IMG/VR virus record: IMGVR_UViG_3300037470_000672
Coordinates: 32,001 to 96,000 of that record
Length of the DNA stretch: 64,000 nucleotides
Direction: 5' to 3' (one strand)
From: a virus
Part shown: positions 215 to 46,562 of the stretch, piece after piece
Layout: each line of letters opens with the position of its first letter
Position numbering within the stretch: the first letter of the stretch is position 1
The notes under the pieces: model-generated
Seen by the model: the letters and a program-made list of their open reading frames with translations, nothing else
What the model was told of the DNA's origin: nothing
Databases searched by the model: none
Made by a program: the position numbers and the translations under genes

Positions 215-700
215 TCATAGGTGAGAGCCCTGCAAGCCGAAAGGAAGGCTTGTGCCTAGAGGCAACACCCACAGGTGGTACCAGTTCTGCTGGTCAACGA
301 CTTCATCGTCGGGTGGGTAGATTTCGACTCCCACCCGTTCGGCGCCGTCGGGGAGCAGCTCGCGCTTGATCTGTTGAAGGGTTGCCCACGATCGGATCGG
401 TTTTCGGTCCGCGCGCCGGATGGCCAAACGTTCGACGAGTCCCCAGTCGGTGTCGTGTTCGCACAACAGGACTTCGTAGTGGTTGTTGTACCAGGCGCGT
501 GTGACGGAGGAGAGTCCGGCGGCGGGGATGCGGACCTCATTGTTGGCAGCGGAGTCGAGCGCCAAGACCTCACCAATCCGGGCATGGACATCAGGGAGTT
601 CTGTCCAGCCTCCCACAGGGCCTCGCAGCAACCGCACGCCGACGGCGTCCGCCTTCCTGGCGGCTTTCTTCATCTGGCGGCGCTGTGCTCGGCTGCTCAT
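215..700 (-). CDS. Phage hypothetical protein (probable start MSSRAQ at 700)
   Basis: Part of ORF 215..868; phage-like C-terminus (VEIYPPDDEVVDQQNWYHLWVLP); overlaps the start of the next gene at 218. Confidence 0.7.
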   Translation of the reverse strand: MSSRAQRRQMKKAARKADAVGVRLLRGPVGGWTELPDVHARIGEVLALDSAANNEVRIPAAGLSSVTRAWYNNHYEVLLCEHDTDWGLVERLAIRRADRKPIRSWATLQQIKRELLPDGAERVGVEIYPPDDEVVDQQNWYHLWVLPLGTSLPFGLQGSHL

Positions 701-722
701 TGATGGGGTCTGCCCGTACGGC

Positions 723-1439
723 TCAGCGGTTCTTCTTACGCGCAGCCTTCTGCGCCTTGCGGCGTTTCTTGCGCTTCGCCTGGTGGTCGGCCGGAAGTCG
801 GCGAATCGTGACCTTCTTGTTCTCGGGATTGTGTACGGCTTTGAGGATCTGCTCGTCGGTCGGGTCAAACGTTTCGATCTCTTCCCCGCTGTAACGCTGC
901 TCTTGCATCAGACTTCCACCATCTCAGCATCCTCCGCCACAAACCAGTCCGGCAGCAGGTTGTGCTTCTCCAGCCACTGGTTGACGACTTGGTTGACAAC
1001 CTCTTCCAGCTCCCCCTGTTTCTCGTGGGAGACGGCATCGAGCCAGGAGTGGTCTGGAAGAGCCCCCTCCGAGTCGTACATGTTGTCGGCGAGGACATCG
1101 AGTATCCATTCACCGTGGAGCTTGGGGACGCGGGGCTTGCGACACCTACCCACAGGCTCGACTCCTCTCCGTTCTCACGGAGGTACGGCACATAGCTCCG
1201 CGGAAGACCAGCGTCCAGGCGCGCTTCTCATGCAGGGGAACCTTAGTTTTTGCGCGGACGCGGGTCTTACGAGCCTCCTGCGCCTGCTTCTGTTTGGCTC
1301 GCCACGCCTTGCGGTGCTCGCGCCGCTGTTCCTTGGTCATGGCGTTGAGCTTGTTGCGGCGGGCGGTCTTGCCGTTGGGTCGGCCTACCTCGCCGCGCTC
1401 CCCTCTGGTGAACACGACGGGCTCGTTGTCTTCGCTCAC
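723..1439 (-). CDS. Three small overlapping hypothetical genes (723..908, 908..1153, 1146..1439)
   Basis: Tightly coupled start/stop overlaps typical of phage operons. Confidence 0.6.
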
Positions 1440-1452
1440 AGGTTCTTCTCCT

Positions 1453-1650
1453 TCAGTCTTCGACGGCTTGGAAGCCCTCTTCGCGTTCCAGCGCTTCGTT
1501 GATGTAGGTGCGGATCTTCTTCAGATCGCTGACCTTGGTAGCCCCGCCCTTTTTGCCGGCGCGCCACAGGTACTTGAGCGCGTTGCCCAGGTAGAAGTCG
1601 AACCGCTGAAGCAGCGTACGAGCCTGCTGGAGCCAGAGGAAGTTGCTCAT
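1453..1650 (-). CDS. DUF3310-like phage protein
   Basis: Motif FYLGNALKYLWRAGKK...DLKK. Confidence 0.65.
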   Translation of the reverse strand: MSNFLWLQQARTLLQRFDFYLGNALKYLWRAGKKGGATKVSDLKKIRTYINEALEREEGFQAVED

Positions 1651-1795
1651 GTCCCCTTTCGGTACTTCCGGCCGCAGAATTCACAACGGCCGGTGTGGGG
1701 GTTCCACTGGCGGTTGCGCAGATCGCAGTCGCACGGCTCGTCCTTGATGCGGGTAGGTTTTACCGGCGGAGGGTTGGTCTCGCTCATCGCTTCGC

Positions 1796-1824
1796 ACTAT
1801 AGACTCGGAACGCTTTCTTGACAA
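1796..1824 (-). promoter_or_regulatory. Sigma70-like promoter TTGTCA-17-TATAGT
   Basis: Read directly; lies upstream of an ATG at 1787. Confidence 0.7.
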
Positions 1825-1870
1825 GGCGAAAAGCACCTACTCACCTCAGCCGCCGATCTTGCCCGTACCA

Positions 1871-1906
1871 GTCTCGGAATTTCAAAGATCCGAGCATCCG
1901 TTCACC
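1871..1906 (-). repeat. Solo CRISPR repeat copy (33/36 to array repeat)
   Basis: GTCTCGGAATTTCAAAGATCCGAGCATCCGTTCACC on + strand. Confidence 0.9.
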
Positions 1907-1946
1907 GTGAAAACGGCGCCACAGAGGCGGGTGGCAGGACAACCAA

Positions 1947-2323
1947 CTAGGCGGCTGAGGGCGGAGTGAAGCCAGGGTCTGTCGGCTCCCCCGCAAGCCC
2001 CTCCAAGAGGACGAGCTTGCCGTCCTTCTCGGAGAAGACTTGCTCAGCCTCGGCCGCTACCTCGTGAGCAGTAACCGCCAGCATCTTCAGCCGGGACAGT
2101 CCAGGCTGAATGGCGCCCTCACGGCGGAGCAACTCGGCGAATGTGAGCGCCTGAAGCATCTCTTGGCGGGTCACTGATCGTCATCCTCGTCGTCTGCCGG
2201 CGAAGGCTTCTGCCGCTTCTGCTTCTTGGGGTCAGCCTCCTTGGCGTCTTCGGTCAAGGGCTTCCCGCTTGGGTAGGGCATGTCCTCGGTGATCATTTCG
2301 CCACTGGGTCTGGGCTGGACCAT
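1947..2323 (-). CDS. Two small hypothetical genes (1947..2174; 2171..2323)
   Basis: GTGA overlap; GGAGG RBS before the ATG at 2323. Confidence 0.55.
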
Positions 2324-2345
2324 CGAATCCTCCGTAGTTGTCCTG

Positions 2346-2381
2346 GTCTCGGAATTTCAAGGACCTGAGCATCCACTCAAG
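2346..2381 (-). repeat. Solo CRISPR repeat copy (31/36); contains the stop codon of the upstream gene
   Basis: GTCTCGGAATTTCAAGGACCTGAGCATCCACTCAAG. Confidence 0.9.
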
Positions 2382-2739
2382 CGACCGCAGGCATCCAGCG
2401 AAACCCCATGAACTGAAAGATCCTGCGCAGCTCCTTGGTGAGCTTCAAACGGTCTTTCTCCGTCTTCACCTTCACCGTGTGCAGGTATTCACAATCGGTC
2501 CGCGACGGGGCGTCCAGAACCAGGCGCACCGACACCAAGCCGGAGTCCAAGCAGCGCAACTCACCTCGGAAATCTCGGTTCGCAACCAACGTGAAATCGA
2601 CCCCCACACCCGGCAAACCTCGCTTCCGAGTGCACAAAAGGTCCAAGCCGAACATCTCCAGCACAGACAGGAGCCGAGCCATGTTCTGGCCGCTCAGGGC
2701 GTCGCTCTTCAATCTTCGTAAGACCTCAGATAACGGCAC
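2377..2739 (-). CDS. Hypothetical protein
   Basis: 120-aa ORF in operon orientation. Confidence 0.6.
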   Translation of the reverse strand: MPLSEVLRRLKSDALSGQNMARLLSVLEMFGLDLLCTRKRGLPGVGVDFTLVANRDFRGELRCLDSGLVSVRLVLDAPSRTDCEYLHTVKVKTEKDRLKLTKELRRIFQFMGFRWMPAVA

Positions 2740-2899
2740 TTGAGCGTCCTTTGGATAGAAGAGTCAGGCGAGCGGTCCGTAGCGGCCCTGGGGGGTATGG
2801 ATCGCAGACCGCTCGCCTGACCCAAGCGAGACCAATGGGAAGGTAGGCCCCTACAAAGGGTAGTAGCCACCGTTTTGGTTGTCAAATTCGGGGCTTCTC

Positions 2900-3328
2900 T
2901 CATCGAGCCTCGGTCCAAAACTCCCGAGGACTGATCTGCAAAGCCCTAGCTACCGCCTCCAGCGTTGACACCCGGGTATCGTTTTCTGATGCGTTCAGCA
3001 TCCGATAGAGGCTGCTCCGAGACACCCCCGACCGCTGAGCAAGCGTATCGTAGGTCAAACCGAGCCGGCTCATTCGCTTTTTGACGACCTCGGTGAGACA
3101 AAATTGAAAGGCCACAGCCGATATTTTTTGAACCGGTTGTGCTCGCTTACGGGTGTACAGGCGCTTGCGCCGTTGAATAAGGGCCAAGCTCAGGCGCTTC
3201 ATCCCCCCTTCCGTGAACTCCACATCAACTTGACCCGAGGACGGATGAACAGCCCGGACGATGCCGGGCTGTTTGTCGGAGAGGGTCTCCACCTGGGAGC
3301 CTTCTTTGATGGGCCGGTAGCGGGGCAT
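2900..3328 (-). CDS. XRE-family helix-turn-helix regulator
   Basis: C-terminal LGLTYDTLAQRSGVSRSSLYRML...TLEAVARAL HTH pattern. Confidence 0.8.
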   Translation of the reverse strand: MPRYRPIKEGSQVETLSDKQPGIVRAVHPSSGQVDVEFTEGGMKRLSLALIQRRKRLYTRKRAQPVQKISAVAFQFCLTEVVKKRMSRLGLTYDTLAQRSGVSRSSLYRMLNASENDTRVSTLEAVARALQISPREFWTEAR

Positions 3329-3342
3329 GCTCTCTTGTCTCG

Positions 3343-3378
3343 GTCTCGGAATTTCAAAGATCCGAGCATCTTTTCAAG
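3343..3378 (-). repeat. Solo CRISPR repeat copy (33/36), 14 nt upstream of the XRE ATG
   Basis: GTCTCGGAATTTCAAAGATCCGAGCATCTTTTCAAG. Confidence 0.9.
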
Positions 3379-3571
3379 ACAACAAACAACTCATCACACG
3401 CCAGCTCGGCCGCGTGCGACCATGTCCGTCCGTCGTCCGGGTCTTCACTTCGCGTGACATACTCCAGCTTCTGGACTGCTTTGAGCAGTTTCCCTAGCTT
3501 GGCGCAGGGACTGCAAAGCGCCAGCGGCGCGTTGCAGTCGCCGCAGAAAGCGCACTCGGACTCGGAGCTGC

Positions 3572-3919
3572 TCATGCGCCGTCTCCGGCGTCTTTGCGGA
3601 TCCAATCCTCCGCAGCCTCCAGCCCGTCGATTGCATCCTTGATGTCCCGATCTTGAATGAAGCGCATCACCTGCTCTTCACCATCTCGCTGCCGCACCCT
3701 GCCGACCGAGACAGAGTACATGCGGCCGTTCTGCCCCTCCGCCGTCTGTACCTGGGTACGAACGTGACCGAAGTCGAAGTTGGTGGCGTTTTGCCACTCC
3801 AAACGGGGGCGCGGTGTACGCGCGGCGTACCCACCCTGCGACCGATCGCTGTACCCCTCCTGTGAGGGGTTCCCGTTGTACGACAGATTACTGTTTTGAC
3901 GGTGGTTCCTCTTGCCCAT
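3572..3919 (-). CDS. Hypothetical protein
   Basis: 115-aa ORF downstream of a TTGACA-16-TATAGT promoter (~3957-3984). Confidence 0.65.
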   Translation of the reverse strand: MGKRNHRQNSNLSYNGNPSQEGYSDRSQGGYAARTPRPRLEWQNATNFDFGHVRTQVQTAEGQNGRMYSVSVGRVRQRDGEEQVMRFIQDRDIKDAIDGLEAAEDWIRKDAGDGA

Positions 3920-4414
3920 GGTCTTGTGTTTCCCTCAGTCGTTGGGTGCCGGCTTGACTATACGCAGGACGCTTGGTGTGTCAAGCACGGTACAGGAAAA
4001 ACGCCGTACACGGCGCCAGTTCAGTTTTCTGGATCGGGTTCGGGTGATGCGGAGGGTGGGACCAACTCCTGGAAGCGGGGAGCGATTATTCCTTCCAGCT
4101 CTTCCAATCGCCCATGGACACGTAGTCCTTGGGACACCTGCTCAGCGATGCGCGCCAGACACTTGGTTCGCCCGCAGAAACATAGATTGTTGGGCTCGTC
4201 CGTCATGTGTCTCCCGGAAGGTTCCCATGGTCCACGAAGTGTTGGAGCAATGGAAGCAACACGGCTACTTGCCAGCGCGTCAGAAGCGACCGACGTCGCC
4301 GTCGCGCGCGGCCTCACGCAGCTCCGCGCATGCTTCGAGCTGATCTTCCAACTCCGCGACGCGCTGTTCGAGGTCTTTCACATCGAAAGCGCTCATGCGC
4401 TTCTTTGAGGAGAA

Positions 4415-4441
4415 AGGGGAGCGCTCCGCAGAGCGCTCCCC
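4415..4441 (-). terminator. Probable intrinsic terminator after the ArdC-like gene
   Basis: GGGGAGCGCTC-CGCA-GAGCGCTCCCC hairpin, followed by CTTTCT on the minus strand. Confidence 0.6.
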
Positions 4442-4452
4442 TTGGTTAAGGG

Positions 4453-5424
4453 TCATGCCGCCATCAGGCAGGCGTTCTCGGCCTTGAGTCGCTCGATTTC
4501 GGCCTTCATCTCGGCCAGGGTCATCTCGCTGGCTTTCTTGTCCTTGGCCGGCTTGGGCGCCTGCTCCTCGACGAAGGTGAGGATCTCTGCCGTCGCCTTC
4601 TGCACCCGGTCCGCCACCTTCTCGACCTTCTCCGGGTCGGAGCCGCTCCAGTGCGCGACGTAGCCAAAGGAGTAGCTGGCAGAGTCGACCCCCAGCGCGC
4701 TCATGACGCAGTAGGCCACGCTCTCGGCCTCCACCTCGCGGTAGTCCGTGGGGGTGTGGCACAAGCCCGACTCCTTGCTGTGCAGGATGACGTGGGCCAG
4801 CTCGTGGGCCAGGGTCTTGGCCTGCTGTGCCGGGCTGTTGGCCTCGTTGAGCGCGATGCGCTTCTCCGAGAAGACCACGTAGCCGCCCATGCCGTCGATC
4901 ATGCGCTCGGTCTCGATCGTGTAGCCCTTCTTTTGGGCCAGGTTGCTGAGCGCCGTGAACGCGAGGTCAGCGGCCGGAGACGAGCCGTCGAGGGTCTGGA
5001 TGACGTCCAGCTCGGGCAGGTCCGGACCCTCGGTCTGCGCGATGTCGTAGACGAAGACGGTCTTGAAGAATCGAACGAAGCGGTAGGGCTTCTCCTGCCC
5101 GTCTTCCGTCCGCTTACCCCAGCCGAAGATGGGGGCGCGGATGGCGATCTTTTTCTCGCTGGCCTTCACCCGACGACCGGTGCGGGTCTCCCACTGCCGA
5201 CGCCCCATGACGCGCGAGGCGCCCGGACGCTGGAGGTGGATGAGGAGCTGGTTGGTCCAGGAATACTTCCAGAACATCGCCTGGAAGGCGAGGAACTGGA
5301 CCCAGGCGTTCGAACCGATGAGCGCTTCGACGCCGCGCTTCATCTGCTCGACGAGGTCTTTCGCCTCGCTCTCCTTCTGGGCTTTGAACTGCGCCTTCTG
5401 GTCGGGAGTGAACTGCTTGCCCAT
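4453..5424 (-). CDS. ardC: ArdC-like antirestriction protein (N-terminal ssDNA-binding domain plus HELAH metallopeptidase-like domain)
   Basis: FWKYSWTNQLLIHLQRPGASRVMG..W motif; TLAHELAH; EVEAESVAY. Confidence 0.8.
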   Translation of the reverse strand: MGKQFTPDQKAQFKAQKESEAKDLVEQMKRGVEALIGSNAWVQFLAFQAMFWKYSWTNQLLIHLQRPGASRVMGRRQWETRTGRRVKASEKKIAIRAPIFGWGKRTEDGQEKPYRFVRFFKTVFVYDIAQTEGPDLPELDVIQTLDGSSPAADLAFTALSNLAQKKGYTIETERMIDGMGGYVVFSEKRIALNEANSPAQQAKTLAHELAHVILHSKESGLCHTPTDYREVEAESVAYCVMSALGVDSASYSFGYVAHWSGSDPEKVEKVADRVQKATAEILTFVEEQAPKPAKDKKASEMTLAEMKAEIERLKAENACLMAA

Positions 5425-8071: not shown

Positions 8072-8198
8072 TGGCGGAGAGCGGTGGTCCTGATCCAGTC
8101 TCGGAATTTCAAGGATCCGAGCATCCTTTCAACATCCATAACGCATGCGCGTCCTGACGGGTAGCAGCCGTAGCCCGGGCCTCCCGGGTTCACTCTCC
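8072..8198 (-). pseudogene. tRNA-Ser(GCU) interrupted by a CRISPR repeat plus a 5-bp duplication
   Basis: Acceptor GGAGAGT/GCTCTCC-G-CCA; anticodon arm ACGG-CTGCTAC-CCGT; removing 41 bp gives an 86-nt class II tRNA. Confidence 0.85.
8098..8133 (-). repeat. Solo CRISPR repeat, 36/36 identical to the array repeat, flanked by ATCCA direct repeats
   Basis: ATCCA at 8093-8097 and 8134-8138. Confidence 0.95.
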
Positions 8199-8204
8199 AC
8201 AGGT

Positions 8205-8291
8205 TGGCAGCGGGCAGCGGAATCGAACCACGACGCCTAAGCGCCCTCCAGTTTTCAAGACTGGTCGCTCCCCATGAGCAGTACCCGCTTC
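8205..8291 (-). tRNA. tRNA-Ser(UGA), imperfect stems
   Basis: CCAGT-CTTGAAA-ACTGG anticodon arm, long variable arm, TTCGATT loop, 3' CCA. Confidence 0.7.
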
Positions 8292-8390: not shown

Positions 8391-8466
8391 TTGTGCGGAC
8401 GGCAGGAGTCGAACCTGCACTGACCGGGATTTGACGCCGGACCCTCTGCCGTTGGGGTACGTCCGC
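8391..8466 (-). tRNA. tRNA-Leu(CAA)-like, short variable arm, degenerate (ends CAA)
   Basis: GCGGACG/CGTCCGC acceptor; GCAGG-TTCGACT-CCTGC T-arm; mismatch in the anticodon stem. Confidence 0.6.
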
Positions 8467-10137: not shown

Positions 10138-10173
10138 GTCTCGGAATTTCAAAGATCCGAGCATCTTTTCAAC
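10138..10173 (-). repeat. Solo CRISPR repeat copy (34/36, variant B), 9 nt from the palindrome core at 10183-10198
   Basis: GTCTCGGAATTTCAAAGATCCGAGCATCTTTTCAAC. Confidence 0.9.
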
Positions 10174-11467: not shown

Positions 11468-11503
11468 GTCTCGGAATTTCAAGGATCCGAGCATCCATTT
11501 AAC
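11468..11503 (-). repeat. Solo CRISPR repeat copy (34/36)
   Basis: GTCTCGGAATTTCAAGGATCCGAGCATCCATTTAAC. Confidence 0.9.
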
Positions 11504-12422: not shown

Positions 12423-13043
12423 TTACTCCCAGGCGCGGGAGAACTCCCGGTCGCGGAAGGCGTCGGCGAGCCCTGTGATCTGCTTGAGCCGCAAGACTTC
12501 GTCCGGATCCATGCCCAGTTCTTGGCTAATCCGCTCGTTGCTCCAGTGATGTTTGGTCAACGCCGTCACGAGCTTGGCGCTCAGCTCCACCTGATGCGTC
12601 CCACGAGCCAGGTTGTGCCGCACGGTGGACGTCATCCGGTCCTGAACACCCTTGTTCAGCTCCACCAGGGGGATGTAGCCACCCAAAGACTCCCGAATAT
12701 CCTCCCGGTTCTGGATAACGGTAGTGCGATGGAAACCGTCCACCACCACGTAGTCACCGGCATAAGGGTCTTTGGCTGCGACAATGGGCATCGTCACCCC
12801 ATCCTTCCGGATGGAAAATTCCAAAAGCTTCATCTCCGGCGGGGCAACGACGTTGGGGTTGTAATCATTGCCCTTGACCTGCTCAGACGGGACCAGCTTC
12901 ACGCCTGTTACAGGGTGGGGGAGCCCGAGGAATGCTTGGAGTGCTTCGCTGATCTCGTTGAAGACCTTCACACGCTCGTCGAGCGACAAGTCTGCGCTTT
13001 CGGCCAGGGTACGCTTGAACGCTTCCAAGTCATCCCACATCAC
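12423..13043 (-). CDS. IbrB-like ParB/Srx-domain protein
   Basis: GNDYNPNVVAPPEMKLLEFSIRKDG.TMPIV; VVDGFHR; STVRHNLARG. Confidence 0.85.
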   Translation of the reverse strand: MMWDDLEAFKRTLAESADLSLDERVKVFNEISEALQAFLGLPHPVTGVKLVPSEQVKGNDYNPNVVAPPEMKLLEFSIRKDGVTMPIVAAKDPYAGDYVVVDGFHRTTVIQNREDIRESLGGYIPLVELNKGVQDRMTSTVRHNLARGTHQVELSAKLVTALTKHHWSNERISQELGMDPDEVLRLKQITGLADAFRDREFSRAWE

Positions 13044-14313
13044 GCGCCTCCGAAAACCGTGCAATCAGAGAAAGCTGGCGCTCCATCTCCCGCTTGGTAG
13101 GGGAGAAACTCAACCCCTTTACCCAGTAATCGTTCTTGAGCAGTACCTTCACAATCCTGCGCCAAGAGGGAAGGCGGCATCTGACTCCGTTCACGAGCAG
13201 CCCGGATTCTAGGCGCTTGTCGGGGCATGCGTCGGGGATACCCTTCGTCCAGTCCGGGAGAAGATTGGCTTCACGAAGCGCCCTTACCATTGGCTCATCG
13301 TTGCGGTGTTTGCGCCACCAACGGAGGAAGGTGCGGATCTTGGTCCGATAGTGCGCAGCGATGTTGGGGGGCATGGTGTTGAGCAACAGCTTCGCGTAGC
13401 TCTTGTGCGTGTGTCCCGGAGGAAGAACCACCTTGAGGTTGCCCATGATGTGGGACTGTGTCTTGGAGTAGCGGCTCCCGTAGTTGGCCCCTTCTACACG
13501 AGCGACCACTTTGGTCCATGTTTCGGGTTCCAGGAGCTTGAAGAGGTAGAGCCCTTTGCGCTGGTCATCACCATAGGGCTGGCAAAGGCGCATCTGATGC
13601 AGCGTCAACCCAGCTAAGTGCATGAGGTCGTAGATTCTGTTGTAATCCCAGCCGAGCTTGCCGTTGGCGGTCCAAACGTCCTCGGTAGTCCAATCGTAAA
13701 TGGGGTAGGCGTTGCACACCGTATCGGACAACCAGGTGGTCCACATGCGACCATCCAGGGTATCCTTGTGGGTGTTCTTGATAGTCCGATAGCGGTTGAG
13801 GCTCTCGTCGCTACGAATGGCGACCAAGCAAGCGGTCTTGGAGCCATCAGCGAACCACCCCCCAAACTCAGGGACGAATTCCTCAAACTCCATCCCCTTG
13901 CGGAAGAAGGGGAAGAAACCGGGGTCTGAGATCACGCCCCTGTGCTCAGGAAGCGGACGGATCCAAGCGTCGCGCTTGTCCGGATCCCAACACATCCAAT
14001 GCGGCTGAATCTGAGATACAGCATTCCGAAGATGGATGGGAAGACATACCCACCAAGGCCGGATATCTTGTGTAGCGAACACCCGTTGGACGTAGCTGAT
14101 CGTATGTGCGTACTGACCTTCCAAATCGACCAGAAGAACATCCAGAGGAAGACGTCCCAACTCCCTGGCGGCCCCCAAGGCCAGGTTGAGTAATACTCCG
14201 CTGTCCTTACCCCCGCTGAAGGACAGGTAGACCTTGTCAAAATGGGCGTAGATTTCGCGAATCCGCCGTCGGGCAGCACAGAGCACATCCTCGGTCAGGT
14301 ACGTCTTCGGCAT
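13030..14313 (-). CDS. IbrA-like PAPS-reductase/DUF3440 protein
   Basis: SFSGGKDS; IRSDESLNRY; PIYDWTTEDVW; MRLCQPYGDDQRKGL; LLKNDYW. Confidence 0.85.
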   Translation of the reverse strand: MPKTYLTEDVLCAARRRIREIYAHFDKVYLSFSGGKDSGVLLNLALGAARELGRLPLDVLLVDLEGQYAHTISYVQRVFATQDIRPWWVCLPIHLRNAVSQIQPHWMCWDPDKRDAWIRPLPEHRGVISDPGFFPFFRKGMEFEEFVPEFGGWFADGSKTACLVAIRSDESLNRYRTIKNTHKDTLDGRMWTTWLSDTVCNAYPIYDWTTEDVWTANGKLGWDYNRIYDLMHLAGLTLHQMRLCQPYGDDQRKGLYLFKLLEPETWTKVVARVEGANYGSRYSKTQSHIMGNLKVVLPPGHTHKSYAKLLLNTMPPNIAAHYRTKIRTFLRWWRKHRNDEPMVRALREANLLPDWTKGIPDACPDKRLESGLLVNGVRCRLPSWRRIVKVLLKNDYWVKGLSFSPTKREMERQLSLIARFSEARDVG

Positions 14314-22979: not shown

Positions 22980-23977
22980 TCACTTGGTCGTCGCTTCGAC
23001 GGGACGAAGAGGTTCCCCTGTGCGCAACCGATGGAAGAAGTACCGAAACATCTCCACCTGGAAAATGAACTGGAAGGTCAGGCCACAGACACTCGGCGGA
23101 TCGTCGGTGTGGAGCCGCATGACTTCGCGCTTCTCGTACCAGGCTTCGTAGAACGCATGCTCGTGGTCGAAGTGACGTGCGCGCACGCCGTCGACGAACT
23201 GCTTTTCCTTCTCCGCCCAAGAATCGAACTGGTCCTCCTCCAGAGCACGCTGTGCCTCCTCTGCAACCTCATCAAGGTAGCGGGTGATCAAAGCCGGCTG
23301 GAAATCTTCGATCCCTACCCGACCTGGAACCTTCTCTGCGATGTAGGTCAAGTCGTAGTCGTAACGCTGGCGAGGAAGAAGCTGCCGTTCGAGCCAAAGC
23401 ATCGCGTTGGCGTCGTTCGGCCTGAAAAAGACCTCCCCTGCGTCTCCGTAGGCCATCAGCATTCCGGGAGCGCGAAGGATCCTCATCCAGTAAGCCCAGT
23501 GGTGAGGACGTCCTTTGGGGCGTATGAAGAGCCACTGGTTCTCGTTCTCTTGCTTGACCTCGTGCTCAGCGAACACCCTCATCGCTAGCTTCCGGGCATC
23601 CTCACGAACGGACGGCAGGTAGGTAGCTCGACTCATTCGGACCCCCACAACGACGGATCGATCGGGGCGTCGTCCCCCTGGGTTTTGTCTGGCTTGATGC
23701 CCAGAACCGTTTGCTGGCGTTTACCGATGGCTTCGACAGCATCATGAGCAGGTGGATGCAATCCCATGCAGACAGCTTTGGCGTCTTCGTAGGCGTTGTT
23801 TACAGCACGTTCGACGTTCTCATTGGCGCGTCGAACCAGGGTGTCGGCGTCCTGTTGGATCTGAGTAAACAGCTCGACCACCTCATCGAAGACACAGTCG
23901 CGCATGCGGGCGCGAAGGGTTTTGGAGGTAGATTCAGCCTTGGTCAGCGCGGCTTCGACTCGTTCCTCGATCGTCAA
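22980..23977 (-). CDS. Two hypothetical genes (22980..23636; 23633..23977)
   Basis: ATGA overlap; the TTG start at 23977 lies 11 nt from the terminal CRISPR repeat. Confidence 0.6.
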
Positions 23978-23988
23978 AATATACCCCT

Positions 23989-24172
23989 GTATCGGAATTC
24001 CATATATCCGAGCATCTTTTCATCCCCACGCACGCCTCGAACGCCCGTAGCTGCCCACTCGTGTCTCGGAATTTCAAGGATCCGAGCATCCTTTCAACCA
24101 GTCGAGCTACCGCACGGCGACGGTCGCGTCGCTCTTGTCTCGGAATTTCAAGGATCCGAGCATCCTTTCAAC
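23989..24172 (-). CRISPR. CRISPR array: three 36-nt repeats, two 38-nt spacers
   Basis: Repeats at 24137-24172 and 24063-24098 (identical) and 23989-24024 (degenerate trailer, 29/36); starts 23 nt after the cas12 stop. Confidence 0.95.
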
Positions 24173-24195
24173 AGGATCCACCTAACCTACCGTAT

Positions 24196-25974
24196 TTACT
24201 CACCTCCATCAGCGCTTTGCAAGCGCCGCGCTTGCTGCTCTTCGAGCATCCCGCGAAATCGTTGCTGCCTTCGGGAAAGCACCTTCTTTCCACTGTCTTG
24301 ACCCTCGCGAGCGCCTTCCTCGACAGGCGTCACCGCCGGGGCTCTCGCGAGCAGGTTGTGCGCGGCGTTCTCGTCCTGATCCCACTCCGCGCCACACTGT
24401 TCACACGTGTAGCGGAGTTTGGCTGCCTGGTCCCAGGTGTTGCGGTGCTGACAGCAGTGACAATCCGTTGTCGTCCACTCGGCTGGTACCTCGGCAATAT
24501 CGGCACCTCGCCGGCCGCATGCGTTGTGGATGCGCTGGCGCAGGTCTGATACGCAGGCGACAAATCGCCCGTAGTTCTGCTTGCGCTGGTCGCGGGTGCC
24601 TTCTTCGGCATCGCCCCGCTTAGTCGCGTCACGCAGGTCAAACTTCTCCAGCACCACTCGCGAATAGGCGGTGCTGAGCGTGTTGGCGAACTGCCGGTAC
24701 ACCTCTCGTCGCTGGCGCAGAACCCGGCGCGACTCCTCAACCTCCCACTGCCCAAGGTGCAAGTCGTTGCGGCGCCACGCCTCCAGTCGCTCCACCAGGT
24801 CGGCAGGCATCTGGTCACGATGCTCGTCGTAGAGCCGCAGGACCCGTCGTGGGTTGCGCCAGAGATGGACGTGCGCGGGGTCTGCGCCCATCGCCTCGTG
24901 GTCGACTGTCTGGAGCCATGCGTGGATGCGGGGCTTGACCTCGTCGAATATCTTATCCCGCACAGCTCGGATGCTGTCTGCATGCTGGTCCTTGCGCAGC
25001 ATCATGGCGGGGAGCCGCAGCTCGCCCTCGCGGCCGAATTCGTCGACCCAGTAGGCGACGCGCAGACTGCCGTCGTCAAGTAGCCGCCAGCCGACGTCGA
25101 TCGCTACGGTGCCGTGGCCGCATGCGACCTTTTCAGGCTCGGCGTCGACGACGAACTGCACCTTCCACACGTATCGGGTCGCGCGCTTTTGGCGTAGCAA
25201 GTGGACCCACTTGATCCGTCCCGCGGGCAACGGCTGATGGTAGTCGATGGGGATGACGGCGAAGATCGGATCGCGGCCTTCGCTGCCGACGCGAAAGCGC
25301 ATCACGGTCTTCTGTAGCCGCCGGCGCCCCTTGCGCGAATCGGATTGGGCGGTCGGTCGTTCGATCCAGCAGCGCGTGTCGGGCTCGTGGATGAGCGCAG
25401 CATCCAGCCCGCCCTGAAGCTGGACCGCGAGATGTCCGTTACCGGTCCAGCGCTTGAAGTGCGGGTCCGCGATTGCTTTGCTGGCCTGTTCGACCGCCTG
25501 CTCCACGATGAGGTACGTGCCCCAGTACAGACCGGACGCAGCGCGGGCGCTTTTCACCTGGTCGGCGGCCGTCTTGTTGACGTCCGCTAGCGCCGTCTGA
25601 ACAACGGCGTCGTCCGCAATGAGTGCTTTAGCAACGCGAAGGTCGGCGCGAGCCGCCTTCAGGCGAGGCTTCAGCTCGCAGGCGCGGTCTCGCAACATCT
25701 GCGTCGCCAGCTTGGCAGCCGAGCGGGTTTGGCGACGTAGGAGGTTGATCTCCGCGCGCACGTTGTGCAGTTCATCGGCCAGTGTTTTGACCTCGCCTGC
25801 GAGCTTTTCGGTGTCGGGGTGACCTTCGAGCACTTCGCGCACCTTCTGGCGCCGCGCTCGCTCGATCTCGACAAGCGCGTTGTGATAACGATGCGCCAAG
25901 TGCATCTGATCACTGACCAGGTCAGCCATGTCAGTCGCTGTTTTAGCGCGGTACTCGTAAATACGGACTGTCAT
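24196..25974 (-). CDS. cas12m: Type V CRISPR effector, Cas12m-like (V-M/V-U1), 592 aa
   Basis: Long helical N-terminus with LYWGTY and GHLAVQLQ; RuvC D293 (AIDVGWR), E443, D534 (DQDENAA); Cys Zn-finger; adjacent array. Confidence 0.8.
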   Translation of the reverse strand: MTVRIYEYRAKTATDMADLVSDQMHLAHRYHNALVEIERARRQKVREVLEGHPDTEKLAGEVKTLADELHNVRAEINLLRRQTRSAAKLATQMLRDRACELKPRLKAARADLRVAKALIADDAVVQTALADVNKTAADQVKSARAASGLYWGTYLIVEQAVEQASKAIADPHFKRWTGNGHLAVQLQGGLDAALIHEPDTRCWIERPTAQSDSRKGRRRLQKTVMRFRVGSEGRDPIFAVIPIDYHQPLPAGRIKWVHLLRQKRATRYVWKVQFVVDAEPEKVACGHGTVAIDVGWRLLDDGSLRVAYWVDEFGREGELRLPAMMLRKDQHADSIRAVRDKIFDEVKPRIHAWLQTVDHEAMGADPAHVHLWRNPRRVLRLYDEHRDQMPADLVERLEAWRRNDLHLGQWEVEESRRVLRQRREVYRQFANTLSTAYSRVVLEKFDLRDATKRGDAEEGTRDQRKQNYGRFVACVSDLRQRIHNACGRRGADIAEVPAEWTTTDCHCCQHRNTWDQAAKLRYTCEQCGAEWDQDENAAHNLLARAPAVTPVEEGAREGQDSGKKVLSRRQQRFRGMLEEQQARRLQSADGGE

Positions 25975-26024
25975 GATCTCTCTGTTTCCCTACCTAATAA
26001 AGTAGGTAGAATAAGCGCACCCTC

Positions 26025-28200
26025 TCACATGTTAAACAGCATGGTGCGCTGGACAACGCGAAAGCCGTATCCGGGTGCGATGACGATCTCTTTCGTCTCG
26101 GCGATAGGGTCGACGCGACGCGGATGGTCACAAGGAGCGACCTCGACGTGGTAGCCGTCGAGGCTTTTTCCAGGATCGTGCAAAAGAAACACCTTCCCCG
26201 CGTCAGGTGCCACACACGTCAGGTGGCCACACTTGGGACACGGGCCGTCGTTCTTGCTGTGATCATCGAGCGCTCGTCTCAACCGTCCAGTGATCTGCCC
26301 GCTACCCTTCTGCGTTCTACAAGGATGAAGGCAGAGCGATCCGTATGCCGCCATCACTGATGCGGCGTACATGCGGTCTTGCTCGCTGAGCTGGTCGGGC
26401 GCATAGCGCAGTCGCCACTGCACACCGTCTGGGTCGTCCGGGCGCGGCCAGGTGGTGGTGTCCGGCCCCCCGTCCAGGATGACGTAGGAGCCTCGGATCC
26501 GCGCGCTACCATAGGTCAAGACCGGGATGGAGTAGAGTTCCACCTCTCCTGGGTTTCCCCGCTCAACGGCGCAGTAGCAGGTGTCACAGATCCCGGGGAT
26601 GGCGTCATCGACGCCGTCGGCGCAGCCGTCTTCGTAGCAGACCTGCTTGCCGCAGCCAGGACAGACCCGGAGGTAACCCCAGCAGTAGTCTGGGACGGGA
26701 TGGTTGTGGGACTCACAGCCGGAGGGAAGGCGTAAGCGCATAGGCTCGGGAGGGCCGAGAGAGCTGGCGAAACCTTCTCGGATCCGCTGCGCCCTGATGC
26801 GTTCGCGGTCTTCTTTGGTGATCATCACTTATCCTCTGGTCGTCGGAACATCTCTCCCCATTTGATGGCGATGGATGGATCGTCGCGACCCCTAGATGCC
26901 TGGTGCATGTCAAGGATCCACTGGAGGAGGCTATCGGGCAGAAACGTTCCAGGCGGTGGTGTGTACTCCCAAGCGCCGTTTACTGGGTTGCGTGTAAGGT
27001 AACGACAGTTGACCAATTCGTTGAGTCGTTCCATCAACATGGCGTTGTGTTTGTGAGGCCCCCCGCTGCTGTGGTCGAACACATCTCCCTTCCATCCGCA
27101 CGCGATGTTGAGGAGGTCGGCGTGAAGCGTGACAGGGGCGCGTTCGTCGAGAGCAATCGAAACAAGCTGGTGCAGCTCGTTGGCTACAACGGCCACGGTC
27201 GGCGTGGTGTCCATGGGACCGGCTGTTGGGAGAACGAGCCGGCCTTCGGGTGTTCCTCTGCATAGCTGTGGCGCGATGAGGGGCATCAGGACGTCTCCGG
27301 CCAGACCGGCTCCGGCCAGATCAGCTTCTGCGCCACGTCGGTGTCAATCACTGCGTCCGCCTCATGCCAACGGCGCACCAACACGTCATCCGGGGTGTAG
27401 TAGCTGTCCTCGACTTCGTGAGCCTTGTCGATCTGTTGGAGCAGGTGCCGAAGCGCATGGACTTCCGTGGTTAGGTCTTTCGGATCGGGGGTGTCGGGCG
27501 CAGAAGTGCTGCGCTCGTTCGCAAGGATGAGCTTCTGAATCTTGGCGAAATCGGTATCGATGTCTTCGCGGTCGTCACCGAGCCGAACTCGCAGCAGCAA
27601 GATCATGTAACGCACATGCCCCAGCGTGGCTTCTGCGCGCTCGGCGCGTGCTCGCACCTCTGCCAGATCGCTCAGCAGCACGACCATTTGGTCGGGGTTA
27701 ACACACTCATTGCAGAGGATAACTTCCCCCTCTTTACCCGCTTCGACAAGAGTATTGTCCCCGCAGACGTCACAGGCACGTGTGATCATTCACTGCTCCC
27801 ACCGCCAGGATGTCTACCTTGGCGCGGCCCAACGGGTCCGGTTCCGTCTCCGAGTAGGTGAACACGGCGCCCGGGTACCCTTGACTGGTGATCCTTCCGG
27901 CCGCGTAGCTCTTGGCCTTCTGGACGTCTTCCTCCGTGCCGCAGTTCAGCCAGATGCAGGCTTTGGGCTGGACCTGCTCCACCAGGCGGGGATGGCGACC
28001 GAGGTCGGCGGCGAAAGCCTCGCCGTCCCAGACGCTAACCGTCTCGGTCCAGGCGACAACGATCACCATGACACGCGCTCCCGGCAAGCCCTACAGCTCG
28101 CCTCCTTCTTGCGGTCGCGATGGCGCCCGGCCTTGGCCGACCGTCGCATCATGGCGACGACCACCGGGTTACGGTCTTTCGGCTGCTTGCGCTTGGCCAT
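26025..28200 (-). CDS. Cluster of hypothetical early genes (26025..26828; 26825..27286; 27286..27789; 27770..28069; 28063..28200)
   Basis: Coupled ORFs under promoter TTGACA-17-TACGGT (28242-28270) with conserved leader. Confidence 0.6.
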
Positions 28201-30423: not shown

Positions 30424-30597
30424 GTGCCCGGCTCTTTCATTTCCGAGACGTACCCTCAATCCGCCCGTACGGGCGGATCGGGGTTGAAGAGAGGGTGCTC
30501 AGATCCTTGGAATTCCAAGACCGACGCGCTGTCAGCAACACCAACCCGAGCCGTCTTAGGTGTCTCGGAATTTCAAGGATCCGAGCATCCTTTCCGG
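30415..30597. CRISPR. Head-to-head repeat cluster: degenerate + copy 30415-30449, + copy 30483-30521, minus copy 30562-30597
   Basis: Aligned by eye to the array repeat; 33-nt and 40-nt intervening segments. Confidence 0.75.
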
Positions 30598-35525: not shown

Positions 35526-36680
35526 CTAGTGCGGCACGAACACGATGCGAACCGGCAGCGCAGCACCACCAACGGGCATGAACTGCTGCCACACGGACAG
35601 ACTGTCGCTCGGCTCGTAGCGCGCTTCGACAACGCACTTGGTGTTGTCGCCGAGTGACCCGGTTCCGGCGGGGAGCAAGGCTGTCGTGTTCGTGGTCGGG
35701 ACAACACCGGCCATGATGCGCGCTGCGCCACCCCAAGTCCCGCCGCGAGGGTTCACGCACAGGCCGAGGTGGTCGTGTGCTGCATCATCGTCTTCGGTAG
35801 ACAGGTGCATGCGGTAGAGGACGCCGAAATTCCCTTGGAGGGTTTCCTCTGTTGGCGGGTCGACGGCGTTGTCATAGCCGGTGACGTATTCATCACCGTT
35901 GCCGCCGATGGGAAATTGAACGACGCCTTCTGACGTCAAGATCGTCTCTGTCGCGGCTGTGTCGTAGACCTTGTCCGCGTAGTCGAAGGTGCCGCGATCA
36001 TGGCTGTCACGGGCGAGCACGGACATGCCCGGGCAGTCACCTGTCGGGCTCTCGCTCTGCTTGAGGAAGCACACGGTGACGGCGTGTGTCGACGACATCG
36101 AGTAGTCCCAGATGCCGTGCAGCAGGTAGCCCTTGGCCACGTTCGTAGTGTCGAAGGCCGTATCTAGACGCACCGTTGCTCCAGCCGCGACGTTCACGGA
36201 ACCGAGCGCCGATGAATCTGTCCACCGCTCATAAGCTTTCTTACCCGCGTACAGGAACGATGTGGACGGTCCGGCGGTCCCGTGCTTCTGCACCTGCAAG
36301 GTCGCTGAAGAGCCGGATGTGTTCTTCACGATCACTGAGAACCGTCGTGACGGCCCGTTGGCGTTGTTCACGTGGTAGACGAAGACGCGGTTGTAGTCAG
36401 TGCCCGCGGTGGCTGCGAGCCCCGTGTCCTCGTAGAGCTTACCCGATGCTGTCGGGTATTCCGGGGAGTCGGAGAAGACGAGCCTTCCCCCCGCCCACGT
36501 CTGGGATATGTCGACTTCGGGGCAGTTGATGACCCCGCTGCCAATGTCGTCGAGAGAGATGACGTCGGAGACGCTGGCGCCTGTGATGTCGGCGTCGAGC
36601 TGCGATGACGTGGGGCAGGTCTGCGCCTGCGCGGTCCCTGCTGCTACCAGCAGCAAGAAGAGGGGGAAAAATATCTTCAT
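35526..36680 (-). CDS. Secreted protein with Sec signal peptide
   Basis: MKIFFPLFLLLVAAGTAQA/Q. Confidence 0.75.
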   Translation of the reverse strand: MKIFFPLFLLLVAAGTAQAQTCPTSSQLDADITGASVSDVISLDDIGSGVINCPEVDISQTWAGGRLVFSDSPEYPTASGKLYEDTGLAATAGTDYNRVFVYHVNNANGPSRRFSVIVKNTSGSSATLQVQKHGTAGPSTSFLYAGKKAYERWTDSSALGSVNVAAGATVRLDTAFDTTNVAKGYLLHGIWDYSMSSTHAVTVCFLKQSESPTGDCPGMSVLARDSHDRGTFDYADKVYDTAATETILTSEGVVQFPIGGNGDEYVTGYDNAVDPPTEETLQGNFGVLYRMHLSTEDDDAAHDHLGLCVNPRGGTWGGAARIMAGVVPTTNTTALLPAGTGSLGDNTKCVVEARYEPSDSLSVWQQFMPVGGAALPVRIVFVPH

Positions 36681-46459: not shown

Positions 46460-46562
46460 GTCTCGGAATTTCAAATATCCGAGCATCTGTTCATTGGTGC
46501 GGGCCATATCCACCGGATTGGCCGTGGTCTCGGAATTTCAAAGATCCGAGCATCTTTTCAAC
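46460..46562 (-). CRISPR. Orphan mini-array: repeat 46527-46562 (34/36), 31-nt spacer, degenerate repeat 46460-46495
   Basis: Direct reading; same repeat family as the 23989 array. Confidence 0.85.

Follow-up and report, generated by a model that had tools for sequence, protein, structure and literature searches.

A soil phage of roughly 176 kb that encodes a type V-M (Cas12m) effector carries the 36-nt repeat of its CRISPR arrays as 16 solitary copies as well, and this dispersal of a Cas12m repeat as solitary copies in a phage genome is new here. That the repeat stands alone at about 16 places between genes suggests that Cas12m may act on the phage's own mRNAs, and we hypothesize, at a probability of about 0.55, that the V-M locus is accompanied by solitary repeats at which Cas12m would dock on the phage's own transcripts and cut them. 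Recognition of the solitary repeats by Cas12m, one part of this reading, is likely. The dispersed repeats outweigh in importance the intact D-E-D triad of the protein; a phage Cas12m with D-E-D alone adds another member to a family already known.

A Cas12m gene and its array in a T4-like phage

The record is an IMG/VR virus of 175,906 bp, of which the window covers 64,000 nt. Its 13 tRNAs and its genes for tail fibre, baseplate, head-tail adaptor, portal or prohead-like, UvsX, RNR, RNase H and ThyX-type proteins mark the carrier of cas12m as a T4-like phage. No tyrosine integrase was found, no close relatives of the phage were found in IMG/VR when sought via its UvsX-like protein, and megablast of the cas12m locus gave no match among GenBank phages. 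The earlier note had seen no cas1, cas2 or cas4 in the window; this holds, and profile searches gave no Cas1, Cas2 or Cas4 match in the entire record either. A spacer-acquiring CRISPR locus would have cas1 and cas2 and arrays that differ between samples, marks that are lacking here: the array spacers are identical across four runs (2019-2025) where contigs cover array 1.

The 592-aa protein is a full-length type V-M (Cas12m, formerly V-U1) effector, as the earlier note had supposed. The Cas12u1 profile of PADLOC matches it with E 2.1e-103 (residues 1-545 on profile positions 1-530 of 533), the solved Cas12m chain 23vw_A with E 2.2e-80 (residues 18-544), and GoCas12m (8pm4), by sequence, with E 3.2e-23. 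An AF2 model (mean pLDDT 88) has the bilobed architecture of the family, with a long coiled-coil REC insertion (helices 17-147), WED, RuvC and a zinc-finger TNB, and the top Foldseek match is Cas12m2 8hhl (E 5e-30, TM 0.63), together with GoCas12m 8pm4 and 8hio (TM 0.60-0.64 to the three, E about 1e-29; 0.63-0.64 on superposition with Cas12m2/GoCas12m). MmCas12m2, GoCas12m and PmCas12m share this fold (TM 0.63-0.64; PMC10442227, PMC11013384, bioRxiv 10.64898/2026.03.26.714355), and their way of using crRNA, with a 5' handle, self-processing and a guide of about 17-20 nt, is predicted for the phage protein; they differ in having HDD or NDD triads, in being only 21-23% identical by structural alignment, and in being bacterial.

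A position close to TnpB, also suggested earlier, was not borne out. With TnpB of the IS200-IS605 elements the phage protein shares the RuvC and zinc-ribbon C-terminal core (residues 415-544), but it has about 200 extra REC coiled-coil residues and is accompanied by a CRISPR array where TnpB has an omega RNA. The guided_TnpB profile reaches 53 bits against a cut-off of 100 and covers the C-terminal third only, Cas12f and TnpB superpose on the model with a TM of only 0.37-0.41 (TnpB 0.37), and no transposase was seen among the scanned neighbours of cas12m; we therefore reject a TnpB identity. Two of the checks that the earlier note had proposed, an HMM search and a structure model, both place the protein in Cas12m, the former by a full-length match with TnpB profiles below cut-off, the latter by its fold with the long REC coiled coil.

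Translation and the family alignment, on which the residue numbering was verified, confirm the RuvC triad as D293 (in AIDVGWR), E443 (in VVLEKFD) and D534 (in DQDENAAHN), and the Cys zinc finger (CxxC...CxxC) as C505/C508 and C524/C527. Across the alignment G295, W296 and R297 never vary, while D532, Q533, D534, N536, A537 and all four cysteines are nearly invariant.

The description of array 1 given earlier also stands: the gap from the end of the cas12m stop (24196) to the start of the first repeat (24172) is 23 nt, and three repeats with the 3' terminus GAC enclose two 38-nt spacers exactly as quoted (Table 1). Array 1 is not a chance repeat, since its copies score E 2e-15 to 4e-11 in a covariance model of the repeat and similar repeats with covarying stems lie in the same position at related cas12m genes. 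No promoter-like or terminator-like match occurs on the gene strand between cas12m, array 1 and the next gene, and array 1 appears to be co-transcribed with both genes. The 114-aa product of that next gene has no similarity to its counterpart behind the array at the locus of the closest homologue.

Table 1. Positions of the cas12m locus and of repeat copies in the window
Feature	Position	Strand	Remarks
Solitary repeat	1871..1906	minus	3 mismatches; promoter-like TTGTCA-17-TATAGT about 45 nt further on
Solitary repeat	2346..2381	minus	22 nt ahead of ATG with GGAGG ribosome-binding site
Solitary repeat	3343..3378	minus	14 nt ahead of ATG of 142-aa HTH_3 regulator gene
Solitary repeat, perfect copy	8098..8133	minus	71 nt downstream of tRNA-Ser; then promoter-like site
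Solitary repeat	10138..10173	minus	palindrome CCGCCCGTACGGGCGG before; promoter-like site downstream
Solitary repeat	11468..11503	minus	TTGACG-17-TATAGT about 80 nt further on
114-aa gene	23633..23977	minus	no family assigned; immediately downstream of array 1
Array 1, degenerate terminal repeat	23989..24024	minus	7 mismatches; ends 11 nt ahead of TTG of next gene, ribosome-binding site directly after repeat
Array 1, spacer 2	24025..24062	minus	38 nt; no target found
Array 1, repeat 2	24063..24098	minus	consensus
Array 1, spacer 1	24099..24136	minus	38 nt; no target found
Array 1, repeat 1	24137..24172	minus	consensus, 36 nt
cas12m ORF	24196..25974	minus	592 aa, ATG start
Sigma-70-like promoter match	26008..26035	minus	TTAACA-16-TATTCT upstream of cas12m, consensus match only; short inverted repeat comes after it
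Convergent pair, plus-strand member	30486..30521	plus	only plus-strand copy; after plus-strand ORF and palindrome; faces 30562..30597 across 40-nt spacer
Convergent pair, minus-strand member	30562..30597	minus	covariance model match
Mini-array, repeat 2	46460..46495	minus	ends 12 nt ahead of ATG with GGAG site
Mini-array, repeat 1	46527..46562	minus	then 31-nt spacer

The intact triad and DNA cutting

From the D-E-D triad the earlier note had proposed that the protein may be nuclease-competent, and a TnpB-like, DNA-cutting Cas12m is indeed what a complete set of RuvC acidic residues together with the zinc finger might suggest; Omura et al. speculated on DNA hydrolysis by Cas12m clades 3 and 4 (PMC10442227). 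According to that paper, clades 1-2 have a non-canonical triad, clades 3-4 have D-E-D or variants of it, and Wu et al. 2022 defined clades 3 and 4 partly by D-E-D, with which the triad state of the phage protein is compatible. The earlier statement that characterised Cas12m proteins have a degenerate RuvC is accurate for the Mm, Go and Pm proteins only. Against a cutter stand the published tests: Bigelyte et al. found no dsDNA cleavage by any of the D-E-D, H-D-D and N-D-D Cas12m proteins that they assayed, and purified D-E-D MsCas12m cleaved neither DNA nor RNA targets and had no collateral cleavage (PMC11013384), while conversion of HDD to DED did not restore cutting by Cas12m2 (PMC10442227). 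D-E-D is moreover the common state among relatives (105 of the 135 nearest), the closest solved chain (23vw_A) has D-E-D and is named a DNA-binding protein, and the full Cas12m fold with its long REC coiled coil is unlike TnpB. We consider a DNA-cutting protein improbable, and by analogy with its tested orthologues the 592-aa protein probably does not cut DNA despite its intact triad. Behaviour carried over from MsCas12m and PmCas12m may nonetheless fail at identities of at most 48%, the value for the nearest relative among database proteins, and the RuvC may then be active. As a compact editing candidate, the use envisaged earlier, the protein is a weak lead, because D-E-D Cas12m proteins are known binders and not cutters.

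The locus resembles those of D-E-D V-M members such as MsCas12m (PMC11013384): a protein of about 600 aa with full-length profile and structure matches, D-E-D and a CCCC zinc finger, a 36-nt repeat that ends in GAC and forms a two-stem, pseudoknot-type scaffold, and an array directly downstream of the gene without cas1, cas2 or cas4. It differs in being virus-borne, in having only 2 spacers in array 1, in its identity of at most 48%, and in the dispersal of solitary repeats, which is described for no characterised Cas12m locus. MvCas12m of myxophage MV-1 is presented as the first phage Cas12m (bioRxiv 10.64898/2026.09.14.751636); it is likewise a phage-borne D-E-D effector (D305/E463/D555) with an adjacent array, no adaptation genes and no spacer targets found, and it differs in length (610 versus 592 aa) and in spacer number (8 versus the 2 of array 1). 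The passages of the preprint that were consulted make no mention of dispersed solitary repeats, and its authors read D-E-D as a sign of possible nuclease activity, a reading to which the published tests of D-E-D Cas12m give no backing.

Dispersal of the repeat through the genome

Counted at no more than 10 mismatches to the 36-nt repeat, there are 31 copies in the whole phage genome, 30 of them on the gene (minus) strand, arranged as three arrays (6, 3 and 2 repeats, with spacers of 31-42 nt), one convergent pair and the 16 solitary copies. The "compact array" of the earlier note thus exists as a 3-repeat array, and its locus is one node in this genome-wide set. A covariance model recovers the same repeats, with E down to 2e-15, plus one truncated copy; hairpins follow the truncated copy, as in a small RNA gene. 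Every copy is sense to local transcription, the sole plus-strand copy coming after a plus-strand ORF. The genome holds a second repeated element, a 16-nt palindrome with 13 occurrences.

The repeat copies are real: contigs from four independent soil or sediment DNA runs start and stop in them with identical sequence. No RNA run was listed for the phage. The DNA runs contain only breaks at repeats and graph joints between copies, with no informative array variation; two versions of array 2, at two contig ends, represent a deletion variant without new spacers and are consistent with recombination between repeats.

Across the copies, repeat columns 12-36 (the 3' 25 nt) are almost invariant and columns 1-8 are variable, a pattern that matches the ordered part of the Cas12m2 scaffold, in which the 5' 7 nt are disordered (PMC10442227). 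Within the two-stem scaffold 90.5% of cells pair across copies, and G-C to A-U swaps occur at one pair. Ten solitary or array-terminal copies stop 10-26 nt short of a start codon, and in eight cases a ribosome-binding motif lies within this interval; the genes behind the tagged sites include those for a UvsX-type recombinase, an HTH regulator and a head-tail adaptor. Other copies lie in tRNA clusters or at operon ends; at these two kinds of site, and ahead of promoters, the 45-95 nt that follow a copy are free.

T4-type phages are known to carry repeated intergenic cassettes; their PeSL cassettes, like the stoperators of mycobacteriophages, are repeated elements that act at the DNA level. The 36-nt element could likewise be a recombination or regulatory cassette whose likeness to a CRISPR repeat is secondary, and the palindrome would be in keeping with this. 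We regard such a role as highly improbable: the element builds three true arrays that adjoin cas12m or are co-oriented with it, its scaffold with covarying stems is family-wide and common to other cas12m loci, and its strict sense orientation fits a role as RNA.

A second Cas12m phage, G001, has solitary copies of an unrelated repeat, and these are sense in nine of nine cases in a genome of 78 minus-strand and 61 plus-strand genes; tRNA clusters hold repeat copies in both phages. The GenBank phage Rctr197k (KX853510) also has a cas12m gene, annotated merely as transposase-like. Its locus and three MAG loci have arrays and no dispersed copies, save one copy upstream of cas12m in one MAG, and dispersal is therefore not a trait of the whole family. 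A repeat or mini-array just upstream of cas12m, found in G001, one MAG and possibly a further locus (L022), resembles known autoregulatory elements.

Possible roles of the solitary copies

In our proposed mechanism, Cas12m would bind the 3' 29-33 nt of a repeat as a pseudoknotted handle, would cut its own pre-crRNA and, with a guide of about 17-20 nt, would clamp, but not cut, double-stranded DNA next to a PAM. A copy at an operon end or within a tRNA cluster would yield one stand-alone guide; at the roughly 10 junctions of repeat and ribosome-binding site this site and the start codon would occupy the guide slot, such that binding by Cas12m, or a cut at guide position 17-18, would stop the tagged gene from being translated. 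The cuts made by PmCas12m fall after repeat nt 2-3 and at guide nt 17-18 (bioRxiv 10.64898/2026.03.26.714355). Repeat-tagged control of translation by Cas12m, taken by itself, is a tentative suggestion, and it is similarly tentative that the phage has recruited a CRISPR effector to control its own gene expression (about ten genes and the tRNA operons) while keeping guides against outside DNA. The nearness of copies to ribosome-binding sites may reflect mere genome compaction, since the median intergenic gap in this phage is 10 nt and any intergenic insert therefore falls beside the next such site; docking on transcripts is also spoken against by the G001 solitary copies, which lie 29-86 nt from starts, and by two copies of the 176-kb phage that fall within ORFs.

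As an analogy for the repeat-tagged genes we have in mind phage T4, in which the endoribonuclease RegB and the translational repressor RegA act at ribosome-binding sites to inactivate a group of the phage's mRNAs. The proposed tagged counterpart has no sequence relation to these proteins, and recognition would here proceed via a 36-nt RNA tag to which a CRISPR effector would bind. The Pfam profiles of RegA and RegB had no match in the phage, in a search in which control profiles likewise had none.

Alternatively, the phage may carry an ordinary mini-CRISPR against rival mobile elements, a role proposed for Cas12r in Thermus phages and for the mini-arrays of archaeal viruses, and the solitary repeats may be functionless relics of decayed or recombined arrays. 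The three true arrays with their 31-42-nt spacers, the two versions of array 2, the lack of adaptation genes (as in other viral systems) and the relatives that have arrays only all agree with this. Yet if all sixteen were relics, the 25 nt in contact with the protein would not have been retained throughout while the 5' 8 nt drifted, and the sense orientation would not have been preserved without exception in two phages whose repeats are unrelated; we think it unlikely that they are relics.

Searches for targets bear on another possibility, namely that each solitary repeat and its downstream sequence form a single-guide gene directed at the DNA of a rival relative or host, with any effect on the phage's own mRNAs incidental; a repeat in PAM position would then protect the target in the phage's own genome. 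For a Cas12-type handle a single repeat upstream is enough, 3' trimming is done by Cas12m itself (bioRxiv 10.64898/2026.03.26.714355), and the free sequence behind copies in tRNA clusters, at operon ends and ahead of promoters, as well as the truncated copy with its hairpins, would suit such genes. However, no convincing target was found for any spacer or repeat-adjacent sequence in the phage's own genome, G001, GenBank phages or IMG/VR, and at about 10 copies the would-be guide is constrained as ribosome-binding site and start codon; single-guide genes are accordingly a rather doubtful explanation.

In these searches, the first 22 nt of array 1 spacers 1 and 2, taken as exact matches, and two array 2 spacers had no match in IMG/VR. 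Arrays 1 and 2 gave only chance-level matches to GenBank phages (E 0.2-0.5), the best of which spans a repeat-spacer border, and the repeat-adjacent 40-mers gave nothing above chance against the phage's own genome and G001. Positions 1-24 of the leader-proximal spacer of array 2 match a P450-like (cytochrome) gene on two JGI contigs of 69% GC, with the 5' flank CCCGAGG. No second guide matches these contigs, and a 22-mer search of a collection of JGI size yields about 0.1-0.5 chance matches (a rough estimate for an assumed collection size); with a single guide and this chance estimate, we set the gene aside as a weak lead.

Repeats outside arrays are known as solitary repeat units, regulatory mini-arrays and Racrs, which also act as RNA (bioRxiv 10.1101/2023.03.03.530964; PMC10651486). 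The known cases occur in one or few copies, beside cas genes or as mimics of a host system; the present phage has 16 copies, many before ribosome-binding sites, and encodes the matching effector. Racrs are single repeats that phages carry as mimics of the repeats of their hosts (PMC10651486), and the copies could likewise be RNA anti-CRISPRs, decoys that titrate a Cas12m encoded by the host. This is very unlikely: the matching effector is encoded by the phage itself, a search with the repeat core (25 nt, 2 degenerate positions) gave no match in 185,579 GTDB species genomes, IMG/VR or JGI metagenomes, collections that may lack records of this same phage, and sixteen copies are far above the number described for Racrs.

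Should Cas12m indeed act on the solitary repeats, this CRISPR effector would have an additional task at the RNA level, in the control of phage genes, and tag-directed processing of mRNA by a Cas12 protein would be found in nature. The same use of the repeat could explain why virus-borne V-M loci have tiny or irregular arrays and no adaptation genes.

Phage-borne Cas12m proteins and the RuvC triad

The phage protein is a full-size Cas12m. The 592-aa ORF described in the earlier note is present, and its triad columns in the family alignment are D, E and D. The Cas12u1 profile of PADLOC matches it end to end (E 2.1e-103); a solved chain, 23vw_A ("CRISPR-associated DNA-binding protein Cas12m"), matches residues 18-544 (E 2.2e-80) and GoCas12m (8pm4) matches at E 3.2e-23, the triad positions in the printed alignments being D, E, D for 23vw and H, D, D for 8pm4. 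When aligned with 30 relatives, G295, W296 and R297 are invariant and C505, C508, C524, C527, D532, Q533, D534, N536 and A537 nearly so, and the sole Pfam match is the Cas12f1-like TNB zinc ribbon. A long N-terminal coiled coil is seen in the AlphaFold2 model, which was made from 31 sequences (mean pLDDT 88) and whose top Foldseek matches are Cas12m2 (8hhl, E 4.9e-30, TM 0.63) and GoCas12m (8pm4), as against TM 0.38-0.41 for Cas12f and 0.37 for TnpB. The proximity to TnpB that had been proposed is contradicted by both profiles and fold: NCBIfam TnpB models cover residues 415-544 only, with scores far under their cut-offs, and an intermediate near TnpB is therefore rejected.

The intact triad had also been read as a sign of nuclease competence. 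Wu et al., as quoted in PMC10442227, divide the Cas12m family into four clades and place D-E-D or near variants in clades 3 and 4; four of the eight Cas12m proteins chosen by Bigelyte et al. are D-E-D (PMC11013384), as are 105 of 135 relatives in our alignment, the remainder carrying NED, NDD or other variants. D-E-D, H-D-D and N-D-D proteins all bind PAM-flanked dsDNA and leave it uncut; purified MsCas12m, which is D-E-D, cuts neither DNA nor RNA targets and shows no collateral cutting, and its pre-crRNA processing is unaffected by D274A (PMC11013384). Conversion of HDD to DED in Cas12m2 likewise did not restore cutting (PMC10442227). Given this frequency and the published non-cutting D-E-D proteins, an intact triad is not unusual in Cas12m and predicts nuclease activity poorly, and the phage protein is most likely a DNA binder, not a nuclease.

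Phage-borne Cas12m is already a known kind, as indicated by a preprint, a GenBank phage and the closest relatives. MvCas12m of a myxophage is described in a September 2026 preprint as the first phage Cas12m, with 610 aa, a D305/E463/D555 triad and eight spacers for which no targets were found (bioRxiv 10.64898/2026.09.14.751636). The GenBank phage Rctr197k (KX853510) encodes a homologue (35% identical, D-E-D, annotated only as "similar to transposase") adjoining an annotated 1.5-kb CRISPR of at least 18 repeats, the repeat being a covarying relative of that studied here; this is apparently a phage V-M system that has gone unrecognised. The closest proteins (37-48% identical) lie on viral-looking contigs with many small unknown ORFs, genes for ThyX, MT-A70 and UvrD helicases, a Tad2-like gene and a phage ProQ-like gene. 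The Tad2-like gene (anti-Thoeris family) is on a phage-like contig of 70 kb, 7 kb away from the cas12m homologue.

Genome context, arrays and spacer targets

The window covers bases 32001-96000 of a 175,906-bp IMG/VR virus record, and nearly all genes of the record are on one strand. Those recognised include tail fibre, baseplate, ribonucleotide reductase, RNase H, DprA-like, thymidylate synthase, head-tail adaptor and UvsX-type recombinase genes, together with 13 tRNA genes, all on the gene strand. A 1375-aa open frame comes from a crude ORF call and is possibly a composite of several genes. It has matches annotated as portal, capsid assembly, DNA polymerase and methylase, and it matches more than 2,500 phage records, mostly from groups rich in T4-type phages. 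Two further products have PHROG matches: a 323-aa protein (anti-restriction and metalloprotease), and a 427-aa protein (PAPS-reductase family, classed as auxiliary metabolic or host-takeover). Contigs of at least 17 runs from soil and sediment contain the phage, with no differences in sequence. Cas1, Cas2 and Cas4, reported as absent from the window, have no profile match anywhere in the record, nor has a tyrosine integrase. Both contig ends fall and overlap inside a second array (array 2), so the genome is probably closed; spacers A-E are all present at one end, whereas the other has A and E alone, indicating that array 2 exists in two versions.

Array 1 has the form attributed to it in the earlier note: it begins 23 nt past the cas12m stop codon and has three repeats and two spacers, both spacers exactly as quoted. 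The direct repeats are 36 nt long at a 74-nt period, and the spacers 38 nt. The spacers and repeat-adjacent sequences have no convincing match in the phage itself, in a second Cas12m phage (G001), among GenBank phages or in IMG/VR. In array 2, the leader-proximal spacer matches two JGI metagenome contigs (69% GC) over its first 24 nt, at the 3' end of a gene that was read by eye as cytochrome P450-like and has a ferredoxin-like ORF after it; this sole target lead may be within chance expectation. The repeat core was not found in 185,579 species genomes, weak evidence that it does not mimic a host system.

Coordinates of the cas12m locus, repeats and other features (G000, the whole virus record; G001, second Cas12m phage; L-numbers, loci or contigs examined)
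Feature	Location	Strand	Remarks
cas12m ORF, 592 aa	window 24196-25974	minus	ORF call
Array 1 repeats	window 24172-24137, 24098-24063, 24024-23989	minus	third repeat has 7 mismatches
Array 2	G000 1-450 and 175765-175906 (L025, L030)		six repeats, five spacers of 37-42 nt, AT-rich leader; directly downstream of tRNA-Met, tRNA-Phe
Mini-array	window 46562-46460	minus	two repeats
Convergent repeat pair	window 30486-30597		common 40-nt spacer
Truncated repeat copy	G000 148699-148726 (L029 12699-12726)		first stem's 3' arm missing
Palindrome copies, including	window 7046, 10183, 30461, 46145, 60764
tRNA genes, including	window 8205-8289, 8393-8466; G000 600-4586
323-aa protein	window 4453-5424
427-aa protein	window 13030-14313
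Two-repeat unit of G001	G001 35790-35930 (L009, L032)
Irregular arrays	L023 9789-9956, 12359-12667, 5443-5576, 19049-19131; L093 11940-12390; L022 5732-5991; L091 7946-10150		contigs with closest Cas12m relatives
Array 2 spacer matches	L094 10307-10330; L095 7978-8001
Rctr197k homologue and CRISPR	KX853510.1 110754-114219 (L002)
Tad2-like gene	L092 18846-19196

Dispersed copies of the repeat

At up to 10 mismatches the 36-nt repeat has 31 copies in the whole genome, 30 of them on the gene strand: those of arrays 1 and 2, a two-repeat mini-array, a convergent pair and 16 solitary copies. A covariance model recovers the same set (E 2e-15 to 2e-9) and adds a truncated copy. From copy to copy, columns 12-36 hardly change whereas columns 1-8 vary; in the 36-nt scaffold of Cas12m2 the 5' seven nucleotides are disordered, the remainder forming a stem and pseudoknot read by the protein (PMC10442227). 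A two-stem scheme fits 90.5% of cells, and covariation within the genome is modest apart from one pair that alternates between G-C and A-U.

All copies are sense to local transcription, the lone plus-strand copy coming after a plus-strand ORF. Ten end 10-26 nt upstream of a start codon, with a Shine-Dalgarno-like motif in between in eight; the longest possible ORF starts at the tagged codon at seven of these ten junctions, and genes for an HTH regulator, for the UvsX-type recombinase and for the head-tail adaptor are among those tagged. Other copies come after tRNA genes, with solitary repeats inside or just past tRNA clusters, and some lie 45-95 nt upstream of strong sigma-70-type promoter-like sites, as judged by eye. 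The positions are not random, and together with handle conservation and sense orientation they point to function. Since the median gap between genes is 10 nt, any intergenic insert abuts the next ribosome-binding site, and spacing alone is no proof of positional selection.

A perfect 16-nt palindrome, CCGCCCGTACGGGCGG, occurs 13 times, three copies preceding solitary repeats by at most 10 nt and another lying about 40 nt past the truncated repeat; as it has no U-tract, it may form a hairpin for processing or stabilisation instead of a terminator. The truncated repeat is followed 3' by a long hairpin and then this palindrome, an assembly that looks like a small stand-alone RNA gene.

The genome of G001 is complete at 109,753 bp and has direct terminal repeats; its Cas12m is 33% identical and its CRISPR repeat unrelated in sequence. 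A seven-repeat array lies 3' of cas12m, and just upstream of the gene is a two-repeat unit with a 27-nt spacer, driven by a strong promoter-like site (TTGACT-17-TATAAT) and similar to autoregulatory mini-arrays known from other CRISPR types. There are further solitary copies, one in a tRNA cluster (83292, before tRNA-Phe and tRNA-Met). Although its genes are split 78 minus to 61 plus, each of the nine copies that lie beyond the main array has the sense orientation relative to its neighbours, an outcome expected by chance about once in 500. Rctr197k has no dispersed copies, nor have two of three MAGs with related cas12m, the third (G004) having one lone repeat about 200 nt upstream of the gene; dispersal thus characterises some Cas12m phages but not the family as a whole. 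Array structure is irregular on several phage-like contigs, where the spacers measure only 12-32 nt or the repeats stand 51-379 nt apart. In one form 31-nt repeats recur every 45 nt, leaving spacers of 13-14 nt; in another, heterogeneous repeats that covary are separated by 12-24 nt; in a third, repeats at the 51-379-nt spacing extend over 2 kb. Such short spacers are unlikely to act as guides.

A possible role for the solitary repeats

Mature PmCas12m crRNA has about 33 nt of repeat and about 17 nt of guide, the protein cutting behind nt 2-3 of the repeat and at nt 17-18 of the guide (bioRxiv 10.64898/2026.03.26.714355). Applied to the ten tagged junctions, this geometry would place the ribosome-binding site within the guide segment, and the start codon too at seven. 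Cas12m docked there would mask both, and a cut at +17/18 would separate them from the coding sequence. Such masking or cutting may be likened to RegA and RegB, which act on T4 early messages, although the recognition principle differs. Guides that bind DNA would come from copies with free downstream sequence and from the three arrays. Self-silencing at the DNA level seems unlikely, because the PAM position is taken up by the repeat end, GAC, and the PAMs known for Cas12m are rich in T or C (PMC11013384; bioRxiv 10.64898/2026.03.26.714355).

The papers searched contain no description of such dispersed solitary repeats. The locus as first described is a real but ordinary phage-borne D-E-D Cas12m; the value of follow-up lies in the genome-wide, sense-oriented solitary repeats that preserve the handle.
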